From Promethearchaeota archaeon (GTDB lineage Archaea; Asgardarchaeota; Thorarchaeia; Thorarchaeales; Thorarchaeaceae): a DNA stretch of 14,168 bases. Location of the stretch: the NCBI GenBank assembly GCA_014728035.1, contig WJMJ01000112.1, positions 1 through 14,168 of the forward strand, given 5' to 3'. How positions within the stretch are numbered: the first letter of the stretch is position 1; each line of letters opens with the position of its first letter. Shown piece by piece: positions 1 to 11,740 of this stretch. The position numbers and the translations under genes are program-made. The notes under the pieces were generated by a model. The model did not search any database, had not been told where the DNA came from, and saw only the letters and a program-made list of their open reading frames with translations.

Positions 1-618
1 ACGAGCGGCCTCTGCATTAATACCAAGGAGAGCATAATCCTCATCCCAGACATTCTCAAGTTGGGCACGAATGTCAATAGGAGTTAGTCGAACAGAACCA
101 ACTTCGCCGACCTCATAGATAGAGGTTGGTTTCTCAAGTTTAAGTTTGAGTTGTTCGGATCCACAATGTGGGCAGCTCTTGGCTTTGGCACCGCGTTTCA
201 GAATCTCCTTTGATAGAGCAGCAGTCTTTTGGCCGATCTCAGGATATCGTTTGAACAGACGATTGTAATAATCAATCTCTTCATCAGTAAGTAAGATGCG
301 ACTACATTCTCGGCAGATAGCACGAAGCACTTTGTGAATGACTTTAGCATATCCTGCGTGCATGATAGGTCGAGCAAGCTCGATGTGGCCAAAATGGCCA
401 GGGCAGTTACCTACACGGTTACCACAGGTTCTGCACCGTTGACCGGGGTCAATGACACCGAGACGTTGGTCCATAATACCGGACTCGATGGGATAACCAT
501 CTTCATTGTAAGTATCTGCCACAACGATTTGGGCAACGGACATCTTACGAATATCTTCGGGACTTAGAAGCCCGAATTCAATGGAGTCGATTTTTTTGGT
601 AGGAATACCTGTTAGCAT
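1..618 (-). CDS. rpoA1: DNA-directed RNA polymerase subunit A' (Rpo1N; RpoA if unsplit), 5' part, runs off the window edge
   Basis: Absent from the ORF track because there is no stop in the window. Manual translation from ATG at 618: MLTGIPTKKIDSIEFGLLSPEDIRKMSVAQIVVADTYNEDGYPIESGIMDQRLGVIDPGQRCRTCGNRVGNCPGHFGHIELARP. It has the FGLLSPE strand, D.RLG, the Zn-binding CxxC...CPGHFGHIEL motif and later CRECS/CPHCG. It lies downstream of rpoB. Confidence 0.97.
   Translation of the reverse strand, partial: MLTGIPTKKIDSIEFGLLSPEDIRKMSVAQIVVADTYNEDGYPIESGIMDQRLGVIDPGQRCRTCGNRVGNCPGHFGHIELARPIMHAGYAKVIHKVLRAICRECSRILLTDEEIDYYNRLFKRYPEIGQKTAALSKEILKRGAKAKSCPHCGSEQLKLKLEKPTSIYEVGEVGSVRLTPIDIRAQLENVWDEDYALLGINAEAAR
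559..618 (-). repeat. Copy A of a 60-nt direct repeat (first 20 codons of full-length rpoA1)
   Basis: 49/60 nt identical to 1052..1111, with identical translation MLTGIPTKKIDSIEFGLLSP. The 20-nt perfect core GGTATTCCTACCAAAAAAAT is at 609..590 and 1102..1083. Confidence 0.95.
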
Positions 619-690
619 TAAATCACCTTCTGGATAGGGACGAATAAGTATTGGCAATATAGAGGACATATATATGGTCTATCCCCTATT
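619..690 (-). promoter_or_regulatory. Putative dedicated promoter and Shine-Dalgarno for rpoA1
   Basis: GAAGGTGA (630..623) lies 4 nt before the ATG. A palindromic TATA-like CATATATATG at 667..676 is flanked by an imperfect inverted repeat, ATAGAGGA/TCCCCTAT. Confidence 0.55.
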
Positions 691-859
691 CAGATGACAA
701 TTTAGAATCACTATGAAGTTGTTATAATCTTTTAGTTATGAAGGTCAACTATTGTAGAAAATCGAATGTGATGATATTTTAGACTTGAAAATGAACTAGT
801 TTATTTGCTGATTCATACAGATTTGGATACTAAAATCTAATCAATCTATAGCATCCATT

Positions 860-1111
860 TCACTGCCTCTCTAGTGAAGGAATGTCTAAATATTTGTCTA
901 TTAACTGTGACTCGACATAGGGGAGGGACTTGAATCCAAAAAACGCACCTACGACATTCTGTGAGAGCCGGATAGGTTCCTTCCCAATAAGGTATTGATG
1001 AGCAAGATAGATACAGATACTGGCGACCACAGCAGGTTCAAAGTCATTATCAGGGCTCAATAGTCCAAATTCAATGGAATCAATTTTTTTGGTAGGAATA
1101 CCAGTAAGCAT
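860..1111 (-). CDS. 83-aa chimeric ORF: RpoA' N-terminal 20 aa fused to an unrelated, possibly TFB/cyclin-like helical segment (functional small protein or displaced rpoA1 5' remnant)
   Basis: ATG at 1111..1109 overlaps the rpoB TAA stop (TAATG) and is preceded by GGAGATGA. The frame is open to the stop at 862..860. The track's start at 1141 lies inside rpoB, so 1111 is the more plausible start. Confidence 0.6.
   Translation of the reverse strand: MLTGIPTKKIDSIEFGLLSPDNDFEPAVVASICIYLAHQYLIGKEPIRLSQNVVGAFFGFKSLPYVESQLIDKYLDIPSLERQ
1052..1111 (-). repeat. Copy B of the 60-nt rpoA1 5' repeat (coupled to rpoB)
   Basis: Same peptide as 559..618. Ten of 20 codons differ, all synonymously. Similarity ends at codons 21-22 (GAA GAT vs GAT AAT). 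Confidence 0.95.
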
Positions 1112-4100
1112 TAGATCATCTCCTTGAGGCGCAGTCTGCACGCAAGACCAAGCGACATCATCTCTTGAATAAGAAGTTTGAAAGCATAAGACACAACTAC
1201 GCGGTTAATCTTAGAACCAGTTCCGCAGATGGGGCAATAATACTGGTCTTTATTTCGGTCATAGACACCAATCAAGCCACATTCTTCACATACAAGCATA
1301 GTACTCTTGTCAGACTCATCAAGAAGACGGCCTTTGAGAAGAATTGCAGCTCCATGTCCAATGAGAACATCACGTTCCATCTCACCAAATCGCAGACCAC
1401 CTTCTCTCGCACGACCCTCTGTGGGTTGACGAGTAAGAATCTGGACAGGACCCCGAGCACGGGCATGTATCTTGTCAGCAACCATGTGATGGAGTTTCTG
1501 CATGAATACGACACCAATGAAGATGTCGGAGATGAGTTTCTCACCTGTAACACCAGAATACATGGTCTCACGACCGTTATGCTGGAGTCCTGCATTGATG
1601 AGCATATCGAATAATTCCCGTTCACTTACACCACAGAAGGGGGTACCATCTTGTTGCCTTCCAACCATACAACCAGCTTTACCAGCAACCATCTCGAGAA
1701 TCTGTCCAATAGTCATTCTGCTTGGAATAGCATGAGGATTGATAATGAGATCAGGAACAACACCGTCCTCTGTAAAGGGTACGTCTACCTGTGGGACAAT
1801 ATAGCCAATAACACCTTTCTGTCCATGGCGAGATGCGTACTTGTCACCAAGTTCAGGAATTCTAAGGTCTCGAACCTTCACCTTGACCAATCTATTCCCA
1901 TCAATAGTTTCGGTTAAAATAACGCGGTCGACGACACCGGATTCACCATGACGTACAGCCACCGAGGTCTCACGACGATTTGGAGATTGAATGTCAAATT
2001 CTGAATATTCTTCCAAGAATCTTGGAGGAGAAGTTCGTCCGATAAGGACATCGCCACCTTGAACCTCTACTTCAGTTTCTATAATACCATCTTCACCAAG
2101 GTTTCTGTAAGATTCCTGTGCGCGATATCCACGAACGCTTCTATCTGGAATCTGGAAACGGTCTTCTTGACCACCCGGATATTTTCGTTCTTCACTCTCA
2201 TATACACGGCAGAAAGTACTACGACCTAGTCCTCGCTCAATGGATGCCTTGTTCATAATCAAAGCGTCTTCCATATTGTAGCCTTCAAAGGAAAGGATTG
2301 CTACAACGAAGTTTTGCCCAGCAGGGCGTTTTTCATATCCAATGGAGTCCATAGGCCGAGTCTTTACAATAGGAATTTGTGGATAGTGGAAGAAATGTGC
2401 ACGTGTGTCTGCACGGAAGTTGAAGTTTGAAGCAGGGACACCAACTGATTGTTTGGCCATTCCCGCCATGTATACGTTACGAGGTGACTGATTACGTTCA
2501 GGAAACGGAATGAGTGCTGCTGAGATGCCAAGGATAGTAGCAGGAACAATCTCAAGATGAGTGGTATTTGGTCCAATCTCATCTGGCATCATCGCAATCA
2601 AAGTATTCTCTTCCTCTTCAGCATCAAGGAACTCGATAATACCATTTCTAACAAGGTCACTAAATTTCCATTCTCCCTCGCTAATCATTCTGAGATGCTC
2701 ATCAGTAAGACGACTCTTTCCATTTTCTACAACTATTACTGGACGACGGACCCTACCAGCATCACAATTAACCTCTACCTCGTGAGTGTTCTCATAATAT
2801 GCTATGTTGGTTTCATGGTTGATTTCACCAGCTCGTCGCTTCTGTCGAATGGTCTTAGCCAAAACTAAGGGAGCTGGATGCACCCCTACCAAACGTCCAT
2901 TTAGAAATACGTCAGCCCATTTAGAGCTTCTTTTTCCACTTCTCTCTTCAATAGGTTCAACGTCCGCCTTGTAAAGTGCACGTTCAACAAAATCCTCATC
3001 TGTGCCTACTGAAATATATGCCATCATTGCAATATTCTTGACAAGGCCACAATTTGGTCCTTCAGGCGTTTCATTGGGACAAATTTTTCCCCAATGTGTT
3101 GAATGTAAGTCTCGAGCCTCAAAGTGTGGCTGAGAACGTGAGAGAGGTGAAACAACTCTCCGAAGATGTGACAGGGAGGAGATATAATTGGTGCGGTCAA
3201 GAAGCTGAGACACCCCAGCTTTGCCACCTACCCAATTACCAGTAGCAAGAGCATGTTTTAATCTTTGAGTGATAACGTCAGCTCTAACAGCAGTACGAAT
3301 GTTTGGTTTTCTACCTCGTACAGCAGTCCGTTCTAGTTGGTATTTGATATCGCGAGTAAGTGAATAGAGTGCAACTCTAAACAGGGACATTAGCAAATCA
3401 CCTGAGAGTTTCAGACGTTTATTGGCATAGTGGTCTTTGTCATCAGGTCGCCGTTTATTCAAAACCAAATCGAGAAGGCGTTCAACCATTTGACCTAGAT
3501 AGTAAGCTTTCTTGAGACGATGCTCTTCTTCTGTGCCAATATGTGGTAAAAGGTAACGGTCAAGAACCTTTTCAGCACGAGCTAGACGATATTCTTTGGT
3601 TTGCCCTACTGCAACCCGTTTTCCGATGAAATCCAATGCATTCTCACGGGTGGAACCAGCTTCTTCATCGCGTGCTGCATTTATGGGTGCAGACTGTTCA
3701 ATTGTAACAATAAGCTCGTTCCGTATCTCCTCATCGTCAGATATCACATCTGCGATGTCACGATCAGATTCAAGTCCTAATGCTTTCATTAAAATAGCAA
3801 GAGGAATCTTTCCAGGGACAGATGGGAAGGACACACGGAGCTCACCGGTGCGTTTTCTTTCGATGGTAACCGGAGCTCTAAAACCACGGGAAGTTGAGAA
3901 TACCTTTGCGATATGAGTATAGCTCGAACTCTTACTAGCCTCTTCTATGAGTATTCTGTTTGGAGCCAAGTCTTCTTGAGTAACAAGTACTCTCTCAGAA
4001 CCATTAATGATGAAGTAACCACCAGGGTCTTGTGGATCTTCCCCATGTGCAATAAGCTCTTCTTCATTCATTCCGTGAAGAAGACACTTCTCACTTCGCA

Positions 4101-4488
4101 ACATAATAGGAAGATCGCCTATGTAAATCCGAAGCGTTTCCATTCTGGTGGTGACAGAACCTTCCTTTCGAACAGGGGTACACTCGAGATATAATTTCGC
4201 TGCGTATGTAAGATTACGAATTCTCGCTTCGTTTGGAAAGAGAGGATGTTCGCTACCATCCGCTTCTCGCACGGATGGAGATTCAAGTGTTAATTCGCCC
4301 ATATCCACATAGTAACCTTCTACTTTTGGATTTAGACGGCCAATACTATCTACTACTCTTTGAAGCTCTTCACTGATGAAGCGATTAAATGAGTCGAGGT
4401 GTTGTCCAACTAACCCCTTCTCTCTAAAGTAAGCTTCTATAATCGGCCAGAGCTTCTGTTTGTCTTCGGTTCCCAAGCTTGTCACCAC
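1111..4488 (-). CDS. rpoB: DNA-directed RNA polymerase subunit B (Rpo2), unsplit, 1125 aa
   Basis: Motifs GGYFIINGSERVL, ETPEGPNCGLVKN, GYNMEDA, GDKYASRHGQKG, HMVADKIHAR, GGLRFGEMERD and a C-terminal CxxC...CxxC zinc site. GTG start. Confidence 0.99.
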   Translation of the reverse strand: MVTSLGTEDKQKLWPIIEAYFREKGLVGQHLDSFNRFISEELQRVVDSIGRLNPKVEGYYVDMGELTLESPSVREADGSEHPLFPNEARIRNLTYAAKLYLECTPVRKEGSVTTRMETLRIYIGDLPIMLRSEKCLLHGMNEEELIAHGEDPQDPGGYFIINGSERVLVTQEDLAPNRILIEEASKSSSYTHIAKVFSTSRGFRAPVTIERKRTGELRVSFPSVPGKIPLAILMKALGLESDRDIADVISDDEEIRNELIVTIEQSAPINAARDEEAGSTRENALDFIGKRVAVGQTKEYRLARAEKVLDRYLLPHIGTEEEHRLKKAYYLGQMVERLLDLVLNKRRPDDKDHYANKRLKLSGDLLMSLFRVALYSLTRDIKYQLERTAVRGRKPNIRTAVRADVITQRLKHALATGNWVGGKAGVSQLLDRTNYISSLSHLRRVVSPLSRSQPHFEARDLHSTHWGKICPNETPEGPNCGLVKNIAMMAYISVGTDEDFVERALYKADVEPIEERSGKRSSKWADVFLNGRLVGVHPAPLVLAKTIRQKRRAGEINHETNIAYYENTHEVEVNCDAGRVRRPVIVVENGKSRLTDEHLRMISEGEWKFSDLVRNGIIEFLDAEEEENTLIAMMPDEIGPNTTHLEIVPATILGISAALIPFPERNQSPRNVYMAGMAKQSVGVPASNFNFRADTRAHFFHYPQIPIVKTRPMDSIGYEKRPAGQNFVVAILSFEGYNMEDALIMNKASIERGLGRSTFCRVYESEERKYPGGQEDRFQIPDRSVRGYRAQESYRNLGEDGIIETEVEVQGGDVLIGRTSPPRFLEEYSEFDIQSPNRRETSVAVRHGESGVVDRVILTETIDGNRLVKVKVRDLRIPELGDKYASRHGQKGVIGYIVPQVDVPFTEDGVVPDLIINPHAIPSRMTIGQILEMVAGKAGCMVGRQQDGTPFCGVSERELFDMLINAGLQHNGRETMYSGVTGEKLISDIFIGVVFMQKLHHMVADKIHARARGPVQILTRQPTEGRAREGGLRFGEMERDVLIGHGAAILLKGRLLDESDKSTMLVCEECGLIGVYDRNKDQYYCPICGTGSKINRVVVSYAFKLLIQEMMSLGLACRLRLKEMI

Positions 4489-9466: not shown

Positions 9467-9733
9467 TATTCTAATACATCCTATAGATTTACTTGAATTT
9501 CCAAGTAAACACTTTTCTATAGTTAATTTCTCATCGGGACTAATAAAAGGTTGGATATTGTAATAAAATCAACACAATATAGCGAGCAAAAGAGAAATTA
9601 TTTGAAATCTAATAAATATTGCAACATACACGATAAGCATTAGCCCCATATAATTTCAGGCACATGTAGAATACATCAATTCTAGATATAATGCAAAATC
9701 AATAATTGAAAGAAGCTAACTGGTGGAAAGGCC

Positions 9734-10732
9734 ATGACAGACTTTCTAAAGAAAACATACAAAATAATGGAAATCCAGGGAAAAGCAATTATCGCGACAC
9801 TTGAATCTACAACACTACAACAACCAGAAGCTCTTCTTAATCGACAGCAGATCATTCTTACAGGTTGTGGAGATTCATATGCAGTGGCAAACTTTGGACG
9901 ATGGATTTTTCTGAACATTGGAATACCGTCTGTCTGTATCTCTCCAACAGAGATAGAACAGATTCCAATCAATTCCGACTTTACCATTATTGGTGTTACT
10001 GCTTCAGGTCGAAGTCGCACTACTGTCAAGGCACTTCGCCATGCCCAAGAGAGAGAAGCATACACAATAGCTTTGACAGATAATCCGAATGGAGAGATAC
10101 ATGAGCTCGCTCACGAGTTGTGGCTGACAGAGTCAGGAGTCACAACATATGATATTGTTCCAACTGCACCAACAACAACTGCAATGGGGTATTTATTGAA
10201 AATAGCAGAGATATTAGGCAATGATGAGAGCATAAGTAAAGATTGTAAACATCTTTCAAAAGTTATGGAGAATGCAATACAGTGGGCCAAGAAATGGGGA
10301 GAAGAATTCAGTGAGAAACTAATCCCAGATGGAACGTTGTATCTTATTTCAGAAGGACCAAATTTTGTGGCAGCAGACCTAGGAATGATGAAATTCAATG
10401 AATATGCAGTGATGAAAAGCCAAACGGTACTGAGGGAAGAATTTCGACACCACGGAAATCTTCCGACAAAGGATAATGACACAGTGATGTTAATCACAGA
10501 TTCCCCAATGACAGATGCAGATGAGAGATACATCCAAGTGATATCAGAAACATTACGGTTGAATGCTACAATCCTGTGTACTCCATCATATTTAGATATC
10601 AGAACACGTTTTGCACAAACAATCTTAAACACAATTGCATTACAGTACGCTGCATATCATAATGTATTGAAATATCATCCAGAAATGGAATGGTTCAGAC
10701 TTCCTAATGCCAAAGCATTCAGAATATATTGA
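9734..10732 (+). CDS. Double-SIS-domain sugar isomerase/deaminase-like protein (GlmS/FrlB/AgaS family, no glutaminase domain)
   Basis: EIQ, LTGCGDS, TASGRS, ALTDNP, MKFNE and EEFRH motifs; 332 aa. Confidence 0.85.
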   Translation: MTDFLKKTYKIMEIQGKAIIATLESTTLQQPEALLNRQQIILTGCGDSYAVANFGRWIFLNIGIPSVCISPTEIEQIPINSDFTIIGVTASGRSRTTVKALRHAQEREAYTIALTDNPNGEIHELAHELWLTESGVTTYDIVPTAPTTTAMGYLLKIAEILGNDESISKDCKHLSKVMENAIQWAKKWGEEFSEKLIPDGTLYLISEGPNFVAADLGMMKFNEYAVMKSQTVLREEFRHHGNLPTKDNDTVMLITDSPMTDADERYIQVISETLRLNATILCTPSYLDIRTRFAQTILNTIALQYAAYHNVLKYHPEMEWFRLPNAKAFRIY

Positions 10733-10774: not shown

Positions 10775-11740
10775 ATGATGACGTTGCGCGATATTATAAA
10801 AGACAGCGATAGACCAGATGAAGTAAGACATATCGCAGAGTATGTTAATGCTCATCAAGACGAGTTCATTGCTTTTGTACGCGAAACTTTTGATGAGGGA
10901 ACAGAAGAATCTAAGAACCTAATTTTGAACCTGATTGATTATATTACCGAGCAATTAGCAATTTCTGTAATCGAACATGCAATTGAAGATTCAAGTGACC
11001 AAATAAGAATTCGTGGCCTTAAATCAGCATATCGTATTCGTGTAGAATCACTAAACAACAGACTGGCCGAATATATAGAAGACCAAGATTTACCTTTTGA
11101 AGTTCAGAAATGGTCAGTACACATTCTAGCAAGTACAGACCCTAGAGCATATGGAAAACAGCTTCGTAAAATGGCAAGAGATACTTCAATGGATCTACGA
11201 ATACGAAAGGAAATCATCTATGCACTTACCAATGTTTCAGATGATGAAACCATCGGAACATTTTGTACACTACTTGGAGATGCAAATCCAGAAATTCGGC
11301 AAGCTGGAGCATGGGCTCTAAGTAGAGTGAGTGTTCCAGCTTCGATTAACTGCTTATTAGCAGCCATGGAGGATGATGATGAGGAAGTTCGGAATTGGAG
11401 CATTCGTGCATTACGCGATATGGATGATGCTTACGCGCTTCAGATGCTTGTAGAAACAATGCTCAAAGTGGAACCCAATGAACAAACACGAATGATTAGA
11501 CTGCTCGTGGAAAAACGATCGGAAATAATTCTTCGCGCAATTGCTGAACTTCTATCCTCACCGGATGTGAATGTAAGACGTCTAGCAGCGTGGGCAATGG
11601 GCGTATCACCATATCCACCAGCCATGAATGCATTGAAAGAATTAATTGATGATGAAGACGAACAAGTTCAAACTTATGCCAAAAAGGCTATTGCTAGATT
11701 AGGAGGTCTTGATTTCAGAGGAGTGGGACTTGGTCTATGA
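10775..11740 (+). CDS. HEAT-repeat (PBS-lyase HEAT-like) protein
   Basis: Repeated L.D.xxEVR..A..AL units: LLGDANPEIRQAGAWAL, MEDDDEEVRNWSIRAL, LSSPDVNVRRLAAWAM, IDDEDEQVQTYAKKAI. Confidence 0.88.
   Translation: MMTLRDIIKDSDRPDEVRHIAEYVNAHQDEFIAFVRETFDEGTEESKNLILNLIDYITEQLAISVIEHAIEDSSDQIRIRGLKSAYRIRVESLNNRLAEYIEDQDLPFEVQKWSVHILASTDPRAYGKQLRKMARDTSMDLRIRKEIIYALTNVSDDETIGTFCTLLGDANPEIRQAGAWALSRVSVPASINCLLAAMEDDDEEVRNWSIRALRDMDDAYALQMLVETMLKVEPNEQTRMIRLLVEKRSEIILRAIAELLSSPDVNVRRLAAWAMGVSPYPPAMNALKELIDDEDEQVQTYAKKAIARLGGLDFRGVGLGL

Follow-up and report, generated by a model that had tools for sequence, protein, structure and literature searches.

The rpoB/rpoA1 junction of one Thorarchaeota population probably carries a lineage-specific 493-bp insertion scar, formed when foreign or mobile DNA recombined into it. 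The window analyzed here is an entire contig of 14,168 nucleotides from a metagenome-assembled genome (MAG) of a Promethearchaeota archaeon (assembly GCA_014728035.1, contig WJMJ01000112.1), and the evidence comes from this one contig of one MAG. The window contains the complete rpoB and the 5' part of rpoA1, which runs off the contig end (Table 1). Most likely, the insert is a harmless recombination scar of an already described kind and not a new regulator.

Table 1. Features of the rpoB/rpoA1 region, in window coordinates
Feature	Position	Strand	Remarks
rpoB, unsplit RNA polymerase subunit B, 1125 codons	1114..4488	-	Stop TAA at 1113..1111; all seven Pfam Rpb2 domains matched
Copy B, rpoA1 codons 1-20	1052..1111	-	Ancestral position, TAATG overlap with the rpoB stop; now merely the 5' stub of ORF83
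ORF83, chimeric 83-codon frame	860..1111	-	RpoA1 residues 1-20 plus 63 codons of foreign origin in frame; stop 862..860
X' fragment, last 63 codons of a diverged paralogue of the TBP-fusion family	863..1051	-	
Non-coding spacer, 241 bp, 30% GC	619..859	-	No match elsewhere in the genome
TATA-like motif CATATATATG	676..667	-	Inside spacer; putative promoter
TATA-like motif TCTATATTG	663..655	-	Inside spacer; putative promoter
Putative ribosome-binding site GAAGGTGAT	630..622	-	Inside spacer
Vestigial rpoB end	632..618	-	Inside spacer
Copy A, codons 1-20 of the working rpoA1	559..618	-	
Identical 20-nt core of both copies	1083..1102, twin 590..609	-	Candidate crossover or conversion point
rpoA1, first 206 codons	1..618	-	Continues on G000:C25 via an exact 141-nt overlap (window 1-141)
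rpoA1 tract, 97% identical to G001 versus 82% background	303..492	-	Other relatives no more conserved there (0.66-0.77)
Second such near-identical rpoA1 tract	41..135	-	

Duplicated start of rpoA1

A preliminary description, made from the letters of the window, had reported that the first 20 codons of rpoA1 occur twice, and the duplication is real: copies A and B each translate to MLTGIPTKKIDSIEFGLLSP. They differ at 11 of 60 nt, in 10 codons, with every change synonymous, all as reported, and their likeness stops at codon 21. The 11 differences fall on 14.7 synonymous sites without any amino-acid change, and not one of 200,000 simulations of 11 random substitutions yielded synonymous changes only. 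A blastn search of the 4.33-Mb genome with the region gave this pair as its sole secondary match (E 1e-13). We also confirmed the roles assigned to the two copies. The ATG of copy B overlaps the rpoB stop codon (TAATG) and then opens an 83-codon frame, here termed ORF83, and copy A begins the genuine rpoA1, the frame of which matches Pfam RNA_pol_Rpb1_1 (E 1.8e-42). The real start of rpoA1 is located 493 bp beyond the start coupled to rpoB. The similarity that had been pointed out upstream of both ATGs corresponds, codon by codon, to a vestigial rpoB end (AAG-GTG-ATT-TAA versus AAG-GAG-ATG-ATC-TAA). The repeat comprises 60 coding nt and approximately 15 nt upstream, and both copies can be aligned to the junction of the only congener, G001 (source name Candidatus Thorarchaeota). 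The rpoB product is 98% identical to RpoB of G001, and the nearest RpoB after that is 89% identical.

A 20-nt core, GGTATTCCTACCAAAAAAAT, is identical in copies A and B, and G001 differs from it at 4 nt. Given that 10 of 19 codons are changed, a run of at least six unchanged codons between the copies has a probability of approximately 0.03. Comparison with G001 (10 versus 11 differences) was uninformative as to which copy is native, and the codon usage of the genome's own rpoB and rpoA1 slightly favors copy B (log-likelihood -20.5 versus -23.3 for copy A), a weak preference. The divergence of the copies (49 of 60 nt identical, 82%) equals the background between orthologues of this genome (G000) and G001 (approximately 18% at the nucleotide level, with synonymous sites saturated), and thus one copy can simply be the orthologue of another lineage. 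As far as the sequences can tell, a copy that came in from another lineage through recombination would fit better than deliberate recoding. A scan of this genome for other such scars, based on nearby identical 12-mers with at least 4 nt differences, returned only tandem paralogues and repeat proteins. A palindrome within the repeat gives near-matches to the spacing of a bulge-helix-bulge (BHB) motif at 492 and 494 nt.

Composition of the insert

The insert, 493 bp long when measured from a point in one copy to the matching point in the other, is present only in this genome and consists of the in-frame final 63 codons of an orphan gene family, a 241-bp spacer, and a second start preceded by a ribosome-binding site. 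Judged from its alignments, the tail of ORF83 derives from the TBP-fusion gene family, with 38-41% identity between the X' fragment and the C-termini of the family members on contigs C113 and C44 (E 3e-13, 7e-13, and 3e-11). This family combines a TBP domain (PF00352) with a helical tail of approximately 240 aa and was found only in this MAG, in which copies are located on C44 and C113 and an additional 3' fragment on C130; the tail is absent from 60 other genomes of the taxonomic family and from the rest of the public sets. Fragments of the fusion gene are scattered at other loci, outside the synteny with G001. A tRNA target beside the copy on C44 was considered and rejected: the conserved element of approximately 110 nt found there in multiple copies is not a tRNA according to ARAGORN and belongs to no Rfam family.

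ORF83 is the only ORF in 619..1111 and matches no Pfam family, and the insert contains no transposase, integrase, or other mobility gene. The spacer has zero matches elsewhere in the genome. No second copy of the insert, free element, or donor was found in the genome or in the metagenome, viral, and protein collections searched. We also considered a BHB intron as the source of the 493 nt, defined by a 4-bp helix flanked by two 3-nt bulges at a spacing equal to the insert length. It was rejected, as the search gave one weak match at this distance, with a 2-bp outer helix, which corresponds to the background frequency.

The junction in relatives

The alignment of the junction across relatives, suggested as a check in the preliminary description, revealed a direct rpoB-rpoA1 junction and an empty site in every family relative examined (24 of 24, including G001). 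The rpoB-TAATG-rpoA1 arrangement is also that of relatives. Overall, rpoB abuts or overlaps rpoA1 at 28 of 30 loci. The flanks on both sides of the insert are collinear with G001. A 39-kb sediment contig joins position 568 to position 1062, omitting exactly the 493 bp; this contig probably represents the G001 population and is thus not independent evidence. A relative is present in just two sediment runs (share 0.04), which show a contig of less than 90% identity from which the insert is absent. As for closer relatives, a degenerate 47-mer fitting either copy had zero matches in metagenome_contigs or genome_contigs, and exact RpoB look-ups with three candidate starts returned no record. In the distant Asgard genomes G033 and G038, rpoB and rpoA1 are also apart, separated by AT-rich spacers of approximately 370 and 100 nt, respectively, but unlike the present locus these spacers contain neither a duplicated rpoA1 start nor a chimeric ORF. 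The separation in these two genomes shows that uncoupling of the two genes is tolerated in the phylum.

The part of rpoA1 directly downstream of the insert contains the longest tracts of near identity to G001 in the 3.5-kb alignment of the locus. The two tracts listed in Table 1 are probably inter-lineage recombination tracts. Farther into rpoA1, there is a 31-nt insert resembling a tRNA intron of the BHB type.

Proposed origin of the scar

Foreign or mobile DNA would have entered the junction with three parts: the terminal 3' portion of a TBP-fusion gene, AT-rich non-coding sequence, and a homologue of the junction of approximately 75 nt. The last part would comprise the last rpoB codons and the first 20 rpoA1 codons of a donor lineage about as distant as a sister species. 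The route was probably either a crossover in the shared 20-nt core or a homologous junction on one side combined with a microhomology junction on the other, at the Pro-Asp/Glu codons 20-21. A crossover in the core implies that the donor already had RpoA1-like codons 10-20 fused to the foreign tail, which needs further explanation. The outcome would be a long, diverged target duplication. The native start would have remained coupled to rpoB and now run in frame into the foreign gene tail, giving ORF83 as a by-product peptide, and RpoA1 would be made from the incoming start, by way of the ribosome-binding site that arrived with it and, perhaps, a promoter located in the spacer.

This account retains part of the first model of the preliminary description, in which an element inserted approximately 20 codons into rpoA1 and rescued the gene with its own expression signals and a recoded 5' end. 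An insertion at this point, with rescue by an incoming ribosome-binding site and start, agrees with the empty sites in relatives, the syntenic flanks, and the foreign or mobile character of the insert. The element and the recoding are the parts that we do not retain: wherever we searched, there was neither an integrase nor an element body nor a further copy of the insert, and recoding is not needed because the divergence between the two copies is no greater than that of ordinary G000 and G001 orthologues.

Alternative explanations

The same structure could have been left by a decayed site-specific integrative element of the tyrosine-recombinase type, with an attP that mimicked the rpoB/rpoA1 junction, the 20-nt core as the crossover, and the integrase and body deleted later, leaving 433 bp. 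We consider this origin unlikely. Direct repeats in which an identical core, with its clustering of unchanged codons, lies between diverged arms would agree with it, as would the empty site in relatives, and the scattering of TBP-fusion fragments outside the G001 synteny is as expected of decaying mobile DNA. Archaeal elements are also known to rebuild the ends of their target genes and to have att sites of up to 69 bp (PMC6563490). However, 619..1051 contains no integrase or mobility gene, no intact or free copy was found in the genome or in the searched collections, and an integrative element has no need for RpoA1 codons 10-20 on the far arm. Furthermore, att repeats normally match from end to end, whereas the present repeats are 82% alike. 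It is highly improbable that the arrangement exists in no single genome and that the contig fuses two co-occurring populations through an assembly or binning artefact. Grounds for such a suspicion are the contamination of the MAG (8.5%) and its size (1.1 Mb larger than the congener), the position of the feature at most 1.1 kb from the contig end, the branching of the assembly graph within rpoA1, where contigs C82 and C25 share only a 141-mer, and the mosaic character of the adjoining rpoA1 relative to G001. However, the assembly is of the k=141 de Bruijn type, with contigs that are k=141 unitigs; an overlap of exactly 141 nt is seen between contig ends in 48 pairs. The longest identity between copies A and B is 20 nt, so that the repeats cannot cause a false join, and the repeats, at 60-79 nt, are in any case shorter than k, making a chimeric join unlikely. 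Each of the two junctions (rpoB tail-copy B-X' and spacer-copy A-rpoA1) fits in one 141-mer and hence in single reads, the sample must contain the 433 bp of unique sequence in these contexts, and the MAG carries only one rpoB.

The remaining alternatives assign a function to ORF83. In one of them, ORF83 is a small protein maintained by selection, in which the N-terminal strand of RpoA1 tethers a TFB- or cyclin-like piece to RNA polymerase or TBP and synthesis is coupled to that of RpoB through TAATG; we regard this as quite unlikely. ORF83 is still translationally coupled to rpoB, its fusion preserves the frame with all 63 foreign codons open, and the amino acids of the stub are unchanged despite saturated synonymous divergence, which fits selection too. 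However, an in-frame junction has a chance of one in three, and amino-acid identity is expected anyway if the event was recent and the copies are orthologues. The origin of the tail from a TBP-fused family and its alignment, in register, with the second cyclin repeat of six of the genome's own TFBs also point toward such a function, but this alignment is weak (hhalign P 0.13), and the cyclin likeness is likewise not significant in Pfam, where the only match was CycT2-like_C (E 0.11), or in a PDB profile search, which gave Cyclin-L1 (E 5.4). The AlphaFold2 model of the helical tail was unusable (mean pLDDT 39.7). Moreover, the tail covers just the final 63 or so of the approximately 240 residues of the helical region, predicted by a low-confidence secondary-structure model to be without the first helix of the last repeat. 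ORF83 forms a singleton cluster found on one contig. No orthologue was detected in the 61 genomes of the taxonomic family, the congener included, or among the 1.84 billion and 5.8 billion sequences of public protein sets, and word-based search, a full HMMER scan, and degenerate-pattern scans of metagenome and viral contigs gave no homologue of ORF83 or X' outside this genome. The second model of the preliminary description, a conserved functional 83-aa protein, has no support in these results, as no orthologue was found and the part outside RpoA is the truncated tail of a larger protein. It is very unlikely that ORF83 acts as a lineage-specific accessory factor made in step with RpoB, in which the RpoA1 strand would dock on the polymerase, a TFB-like piece from a mobile TBP-TFB-like fusion would touch TBP or promoter DNA, and both copies would be under selection.

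Implications

If the insert is a recombination scar, even a tightly coupled junction between essential RNA polymerase genes may accept an insertion when the incoming DNA brings a replacement start, and core information-processing genes of Asgard archaea would be within reach of recombination with DNA of sister lineages. For annotation, the ORF coupled to rpoB should be treated as a chimeric stub, with the start of rpoA1 placed 493 bp farther on. As a scar in a single genome with no signs of function, the finding carries modest weight; the mobile TBP-fusion family and the intron-like insert in rpoA1 may merit more attention.

Comparison with known systems

Archaeal integrated elements in protein-coding genes, such as NitEve-E2 and the casposons in ef-2, rebuild the displaced end of their target (Krupovic et al. 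2019, PMC6563490). The present locus resembles them in the insertion into a coding gene, the restoration of the frame by what would be element-derived sequence, the flanking direct repeats, and the comparison with empty sites. In all 14 thaumarchaeal cases, the insertions are in 3'-distal regions, with short att sites (median 17 bp) and an identifiable element (PMC6563490), whereas the present insert replaces the 5' end, supplies a new ribosome-binding site, and retains no element body or integrase. The second system, insertion with long target duplication, was described from restriction-modification genes of bacteria, where the repeats are 93-99% identical (Nobusato et al. 2000; Furuta, Abe & Kobayashi 2010; PMC2853133). 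The repeats of the present locus are less alike (82%, 49 of 60 nt), and every difference is synonymous. The locus also differs in its host, an Asgard archaeon, in its target, the beginning of an essential gene for RNA polymerase, and in its cargo, which is limited to a gene fragment and a spacer. The class of long target duplications includes cases of gene fusion at the junction (PMC2853133). The present locus shares with this class an insert that lacks mobility genes and is missing at the corresponding site of a close relative, and direct repeats of more than 30 bp that flank the insert and can both be aligned to a single target.

Duplicated rpoA1 start and its junction in relatives

The window is the entire contig C82 (14,168 bp) of the metagenome-assembled genome G000 (4.33 Mb, 173 contigs, completeness 97.9%, contamination 8.5%), whose RpoB shares 98% identity with the RpoB of its only congener, G001, and no more than 89% with any other; its relatives are Candidatus Thorarchaeota according to their sources. 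Two rpoA1 starts are present, copy B (1111..1052, minus), which opens an 83-codon frame (ORF83) at the rpoB stop, and copy A (618..559, minus), which opens the working rpoA1. The encoded peptides are identical over the first 20 codons. The preliminary description of this duplication was right in every detail: 11 of 60 nt differ, every difference is synonymous (an outcome seen in 0 of 200,000 simulations of 11 random substitutions), and the pair is the sole internal repeat of the region within the G000 genome. The final 15 nt upstream of copy A match a vestigial rpoB end codon by codon, minus one codon, so that roughly 75 nt of the ancestral junction make up the duplicated unit.

Features of the rpoB/rpoA1 locus and copies of the TBP-fusion family in G000
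Feature	Position	Strand	Description
rpoB	4488..1114	minus	All Rpb2 domains; terminates in TAATG
ORF83	ATG at 1111, 83 codons (1111..860)	minus	Frame opened by the ATG within the TAATG at the rpoB end
rpoA1	Second ATG, at 618	minus	Rpb1 domain 1, E 1.8e-42
TBP-fusion fragment in window	863-1051	minus	Encodes ORF83 residues 21-83
TBP-fusion protein, C44 copy	G000:C44:207753-209033 (L035:11754-13034)	minus	427 residues; two-repeat TBP (PF00352), then about 240 helical residues
TBP-fusion copy on C113	G000:C113:11622-12871		TBP and tail as separate overlapping frames
TBP-fusion fourth copy	G000:C130:136095-136289		3' fragment only

The junction alignment proposed in the preliminary description, made across 30 relatives, showed rpoB joined directly to rpoA1 in every one of the 24 same-family genomes (16 genera, congener included), with the rpoA1 ATG overlapped by, or a few bases from, the rpoB stop. 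A 39-kb marine-sediment contig joins window position 568 to 1062, omitting exactly 493 bp; it is probably from the G001 population and thus adds no independent support. Collinearity with G001 holds on both sides of the insert, indicating a plain insertion rather than a rearrangement, and the 493-bp insert is specific to the G000 lineage. In two distant Asgard genomes, AT-rich spacers without duplication separate the two genes (about 370 nt, L031:1117-1492, in G033; about 100 nt, L029:1388-1492, in G038), so their uncoupling is tolerated in the phylum. In G033 the match to the RpoB C-terminus is broken into two overlapping pieces that lie in different frames, pointing to a frameshift or an error.

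An RNA-level intron was rejected for the 493-bp insert by bulge-helix-bulge scans. Separately, rpoA1 carries a 31-nt insert beyond the window (G000:C25:319-349, nt +796..+826) that none of the 16 aligned relatives has; its presence ends the frame at codon 271, and its removal gives 885 codons, as in G001. It folds as GUAG[AAA]-24-nt hairpin-CUAU[AAG], a 4-bp helix with two flanking 3-nt bulges 31 nt apart, and matches a tRNA-type (bulge-helix-bulge) mini-intron in shape. The strict scan missed it because its outer helix is interrupted.

Content of the insert

Two larger G000 proteins share 38-41% identity, at their C-terminal ends, with ORF83 residues 21-83 (tblastn E 3e-13 and 7e-13). The TBP-fusion family to which this part belongs is represented in G000 by four diverged copies or fragments. 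The helical tail of the C44 protein matched no Pfam family. The tail was absent from all 60 other genomes of the taxonomic family searched, and two protein sets (5.8 and 1.84 billion sequences) gave no match elsewhere; its resemblance to TFB cyclin repeats is weak and non-significant. Given this distribution, and the placement of the C44 copy just past the end of synteny with G001, the family behaves like decaying, lineage-specific mobile DNA. 3' of the ORF83 stop, the insert continues with a 241-bp spacer (30% GC) that matches nothing else in the G000 genome. TATA-like boxes lie in it 37-58 nt upstream of the copy A ATG, and GAAGGTGAT stands at the usual ribosome-binding distance from that ATG.

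A conserved, multi-copy non-coding element of about 110 nt was also noted (C44:207619-207729, C130:135985-136042, C127:3522-3573, C44:130952-131012, and C5:4255-4347), one copy being directly 3' of a TBP-fusion gene stop at the end of the G001 synteny. Three G001 copies are 84-96% identical, against a genome background of 75-82%. ARAGORN ruled out a tRNA, and no Rfam family was matched. Two genes beside the split copy on C113, a contig linked to C78 through a 141-nt overlap, encode an AbiTii-like protein (PF18864, E 2e-6) and a cysteine-rich product that faintly matches the TFIIB zinc ribbon (9703-10563, minus; 10805-11629, plus).

Divergence of the copies and exchange at the locus

The 11 differences between the copies fall across 14.7 synonymous sites, which amounts to saturation. 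The G000-G001 background across rpoB and rpoA1 is likewise about 18% at the nucleotide level, with synonymous saturation and 97-98% amino-acid identity. Since the two divergences match, the recoded 5' end proposed earlier is unnecessary, and the copies look as orthologous starts of lineages as distant as sister species would. Pro6 is present in both copies and in no relative, pointing to close kin, or an element living in the G000 lineage, as the source of the second copy. The copies share an identical 20-nt core, from which G001 differs at 4 nt, and their differences are clustered outside it (P ~0.03), suggesting crossover or conversion at the core. Measured against G001 the copies are almost equidistant (10 vs 11 differences), which does not discriminate the native copy; codon usage weakly favours copy B.

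Just downstream of the insert, two stretches of rpoA1, nt 125-316 and 482-578 (window 303-492 and 41-135), reach 97-99% identity with G001, where the background is 82%; no difference-free run in the 3.5-kb locus alignment is longer. Their synonymous sites are also near-identical to G001, and other relatives are no more conserved there. Judged from these alignments, the stretches probably arose by recent recombination between the lineages of G000 and G001, which have evidently exchanged DNA at this locus.

Origin of the insert

The low repeat identity and the lack of an integrase or element body led us to read the 493-bp feature as a recombination scar. On this reading, the chromosome would have recombined with mobile or foreign DNA that contained the corresponding junction of another lineage, either by a single crossover within the 20-nt core or through one homologous junction deeper in rpoA1 and one microhomology junction at codons 20-21, where RpoA1 and the TBP-fusion paralogues have a Pro-Asp/Glu motif in common. 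ORF83 would be a by-product, in which the orphaned native start, translated by coupling to rpoB, is continued in frame by a truncated gene tail, and RpoA1 would be translated from the incoming start. A scan of the G000 genome found no second isolated scar of the same type.

The preliminary description had considered an element that rescued rpoA1 with its own promoter, SD and recoded 5' end. This model is supported in part. Insertion stands, given the empty site in relatives and the collinear flanks; recoding is not needed, and the insert has no integrase or element body. A decayed integrative element, which departs from the recombination scar in mechanism only, is unlikely. The other proposal, selection on both copies for a functional short ORF, is unsupported: the stub is free of any amino-acid change, but ORF83 has no orthologue anywhere, its tail is a truncated piece, and the resemblance of that tail to cyclin repeats is insignificant, so we consider a functional ORF83 quite improbable. 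An assembly artefact is very improbable. Exactly 141 nt are shared by 48 contig-end pairs, and by C82 with C25 and C123 (141, not 142), identifying the contigs as unitigs from a de Bruijn graph built at k=141. The two repeats (60-79 nt) have no more than 20 identical bases in common, which makes a false join through them impossible, and each lies with both flanks inside one 141-mer, hence within single reads. On the side of an artefact, the C82-C25 link is inferred from overlap and the graph branches within rpoA1, which indicates a second allele or population in the sample.

The feature is similar to archaeal integrated elements by which the target gene end is rebuilt (PMC6563490), but has no integrase or element body. 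Bacterial insertions with long target duplication (PMC2853133) have no mobility genes, an empty site, direct target repeats of >30 bp and sometimes a junction gene fusion. The anatomy of the G000 scar matches theirs, although repeat identity is 93-99% there and 82% here. Found in one genome, the locus adds a modestly interesting archaeal example to this known kind of scar.
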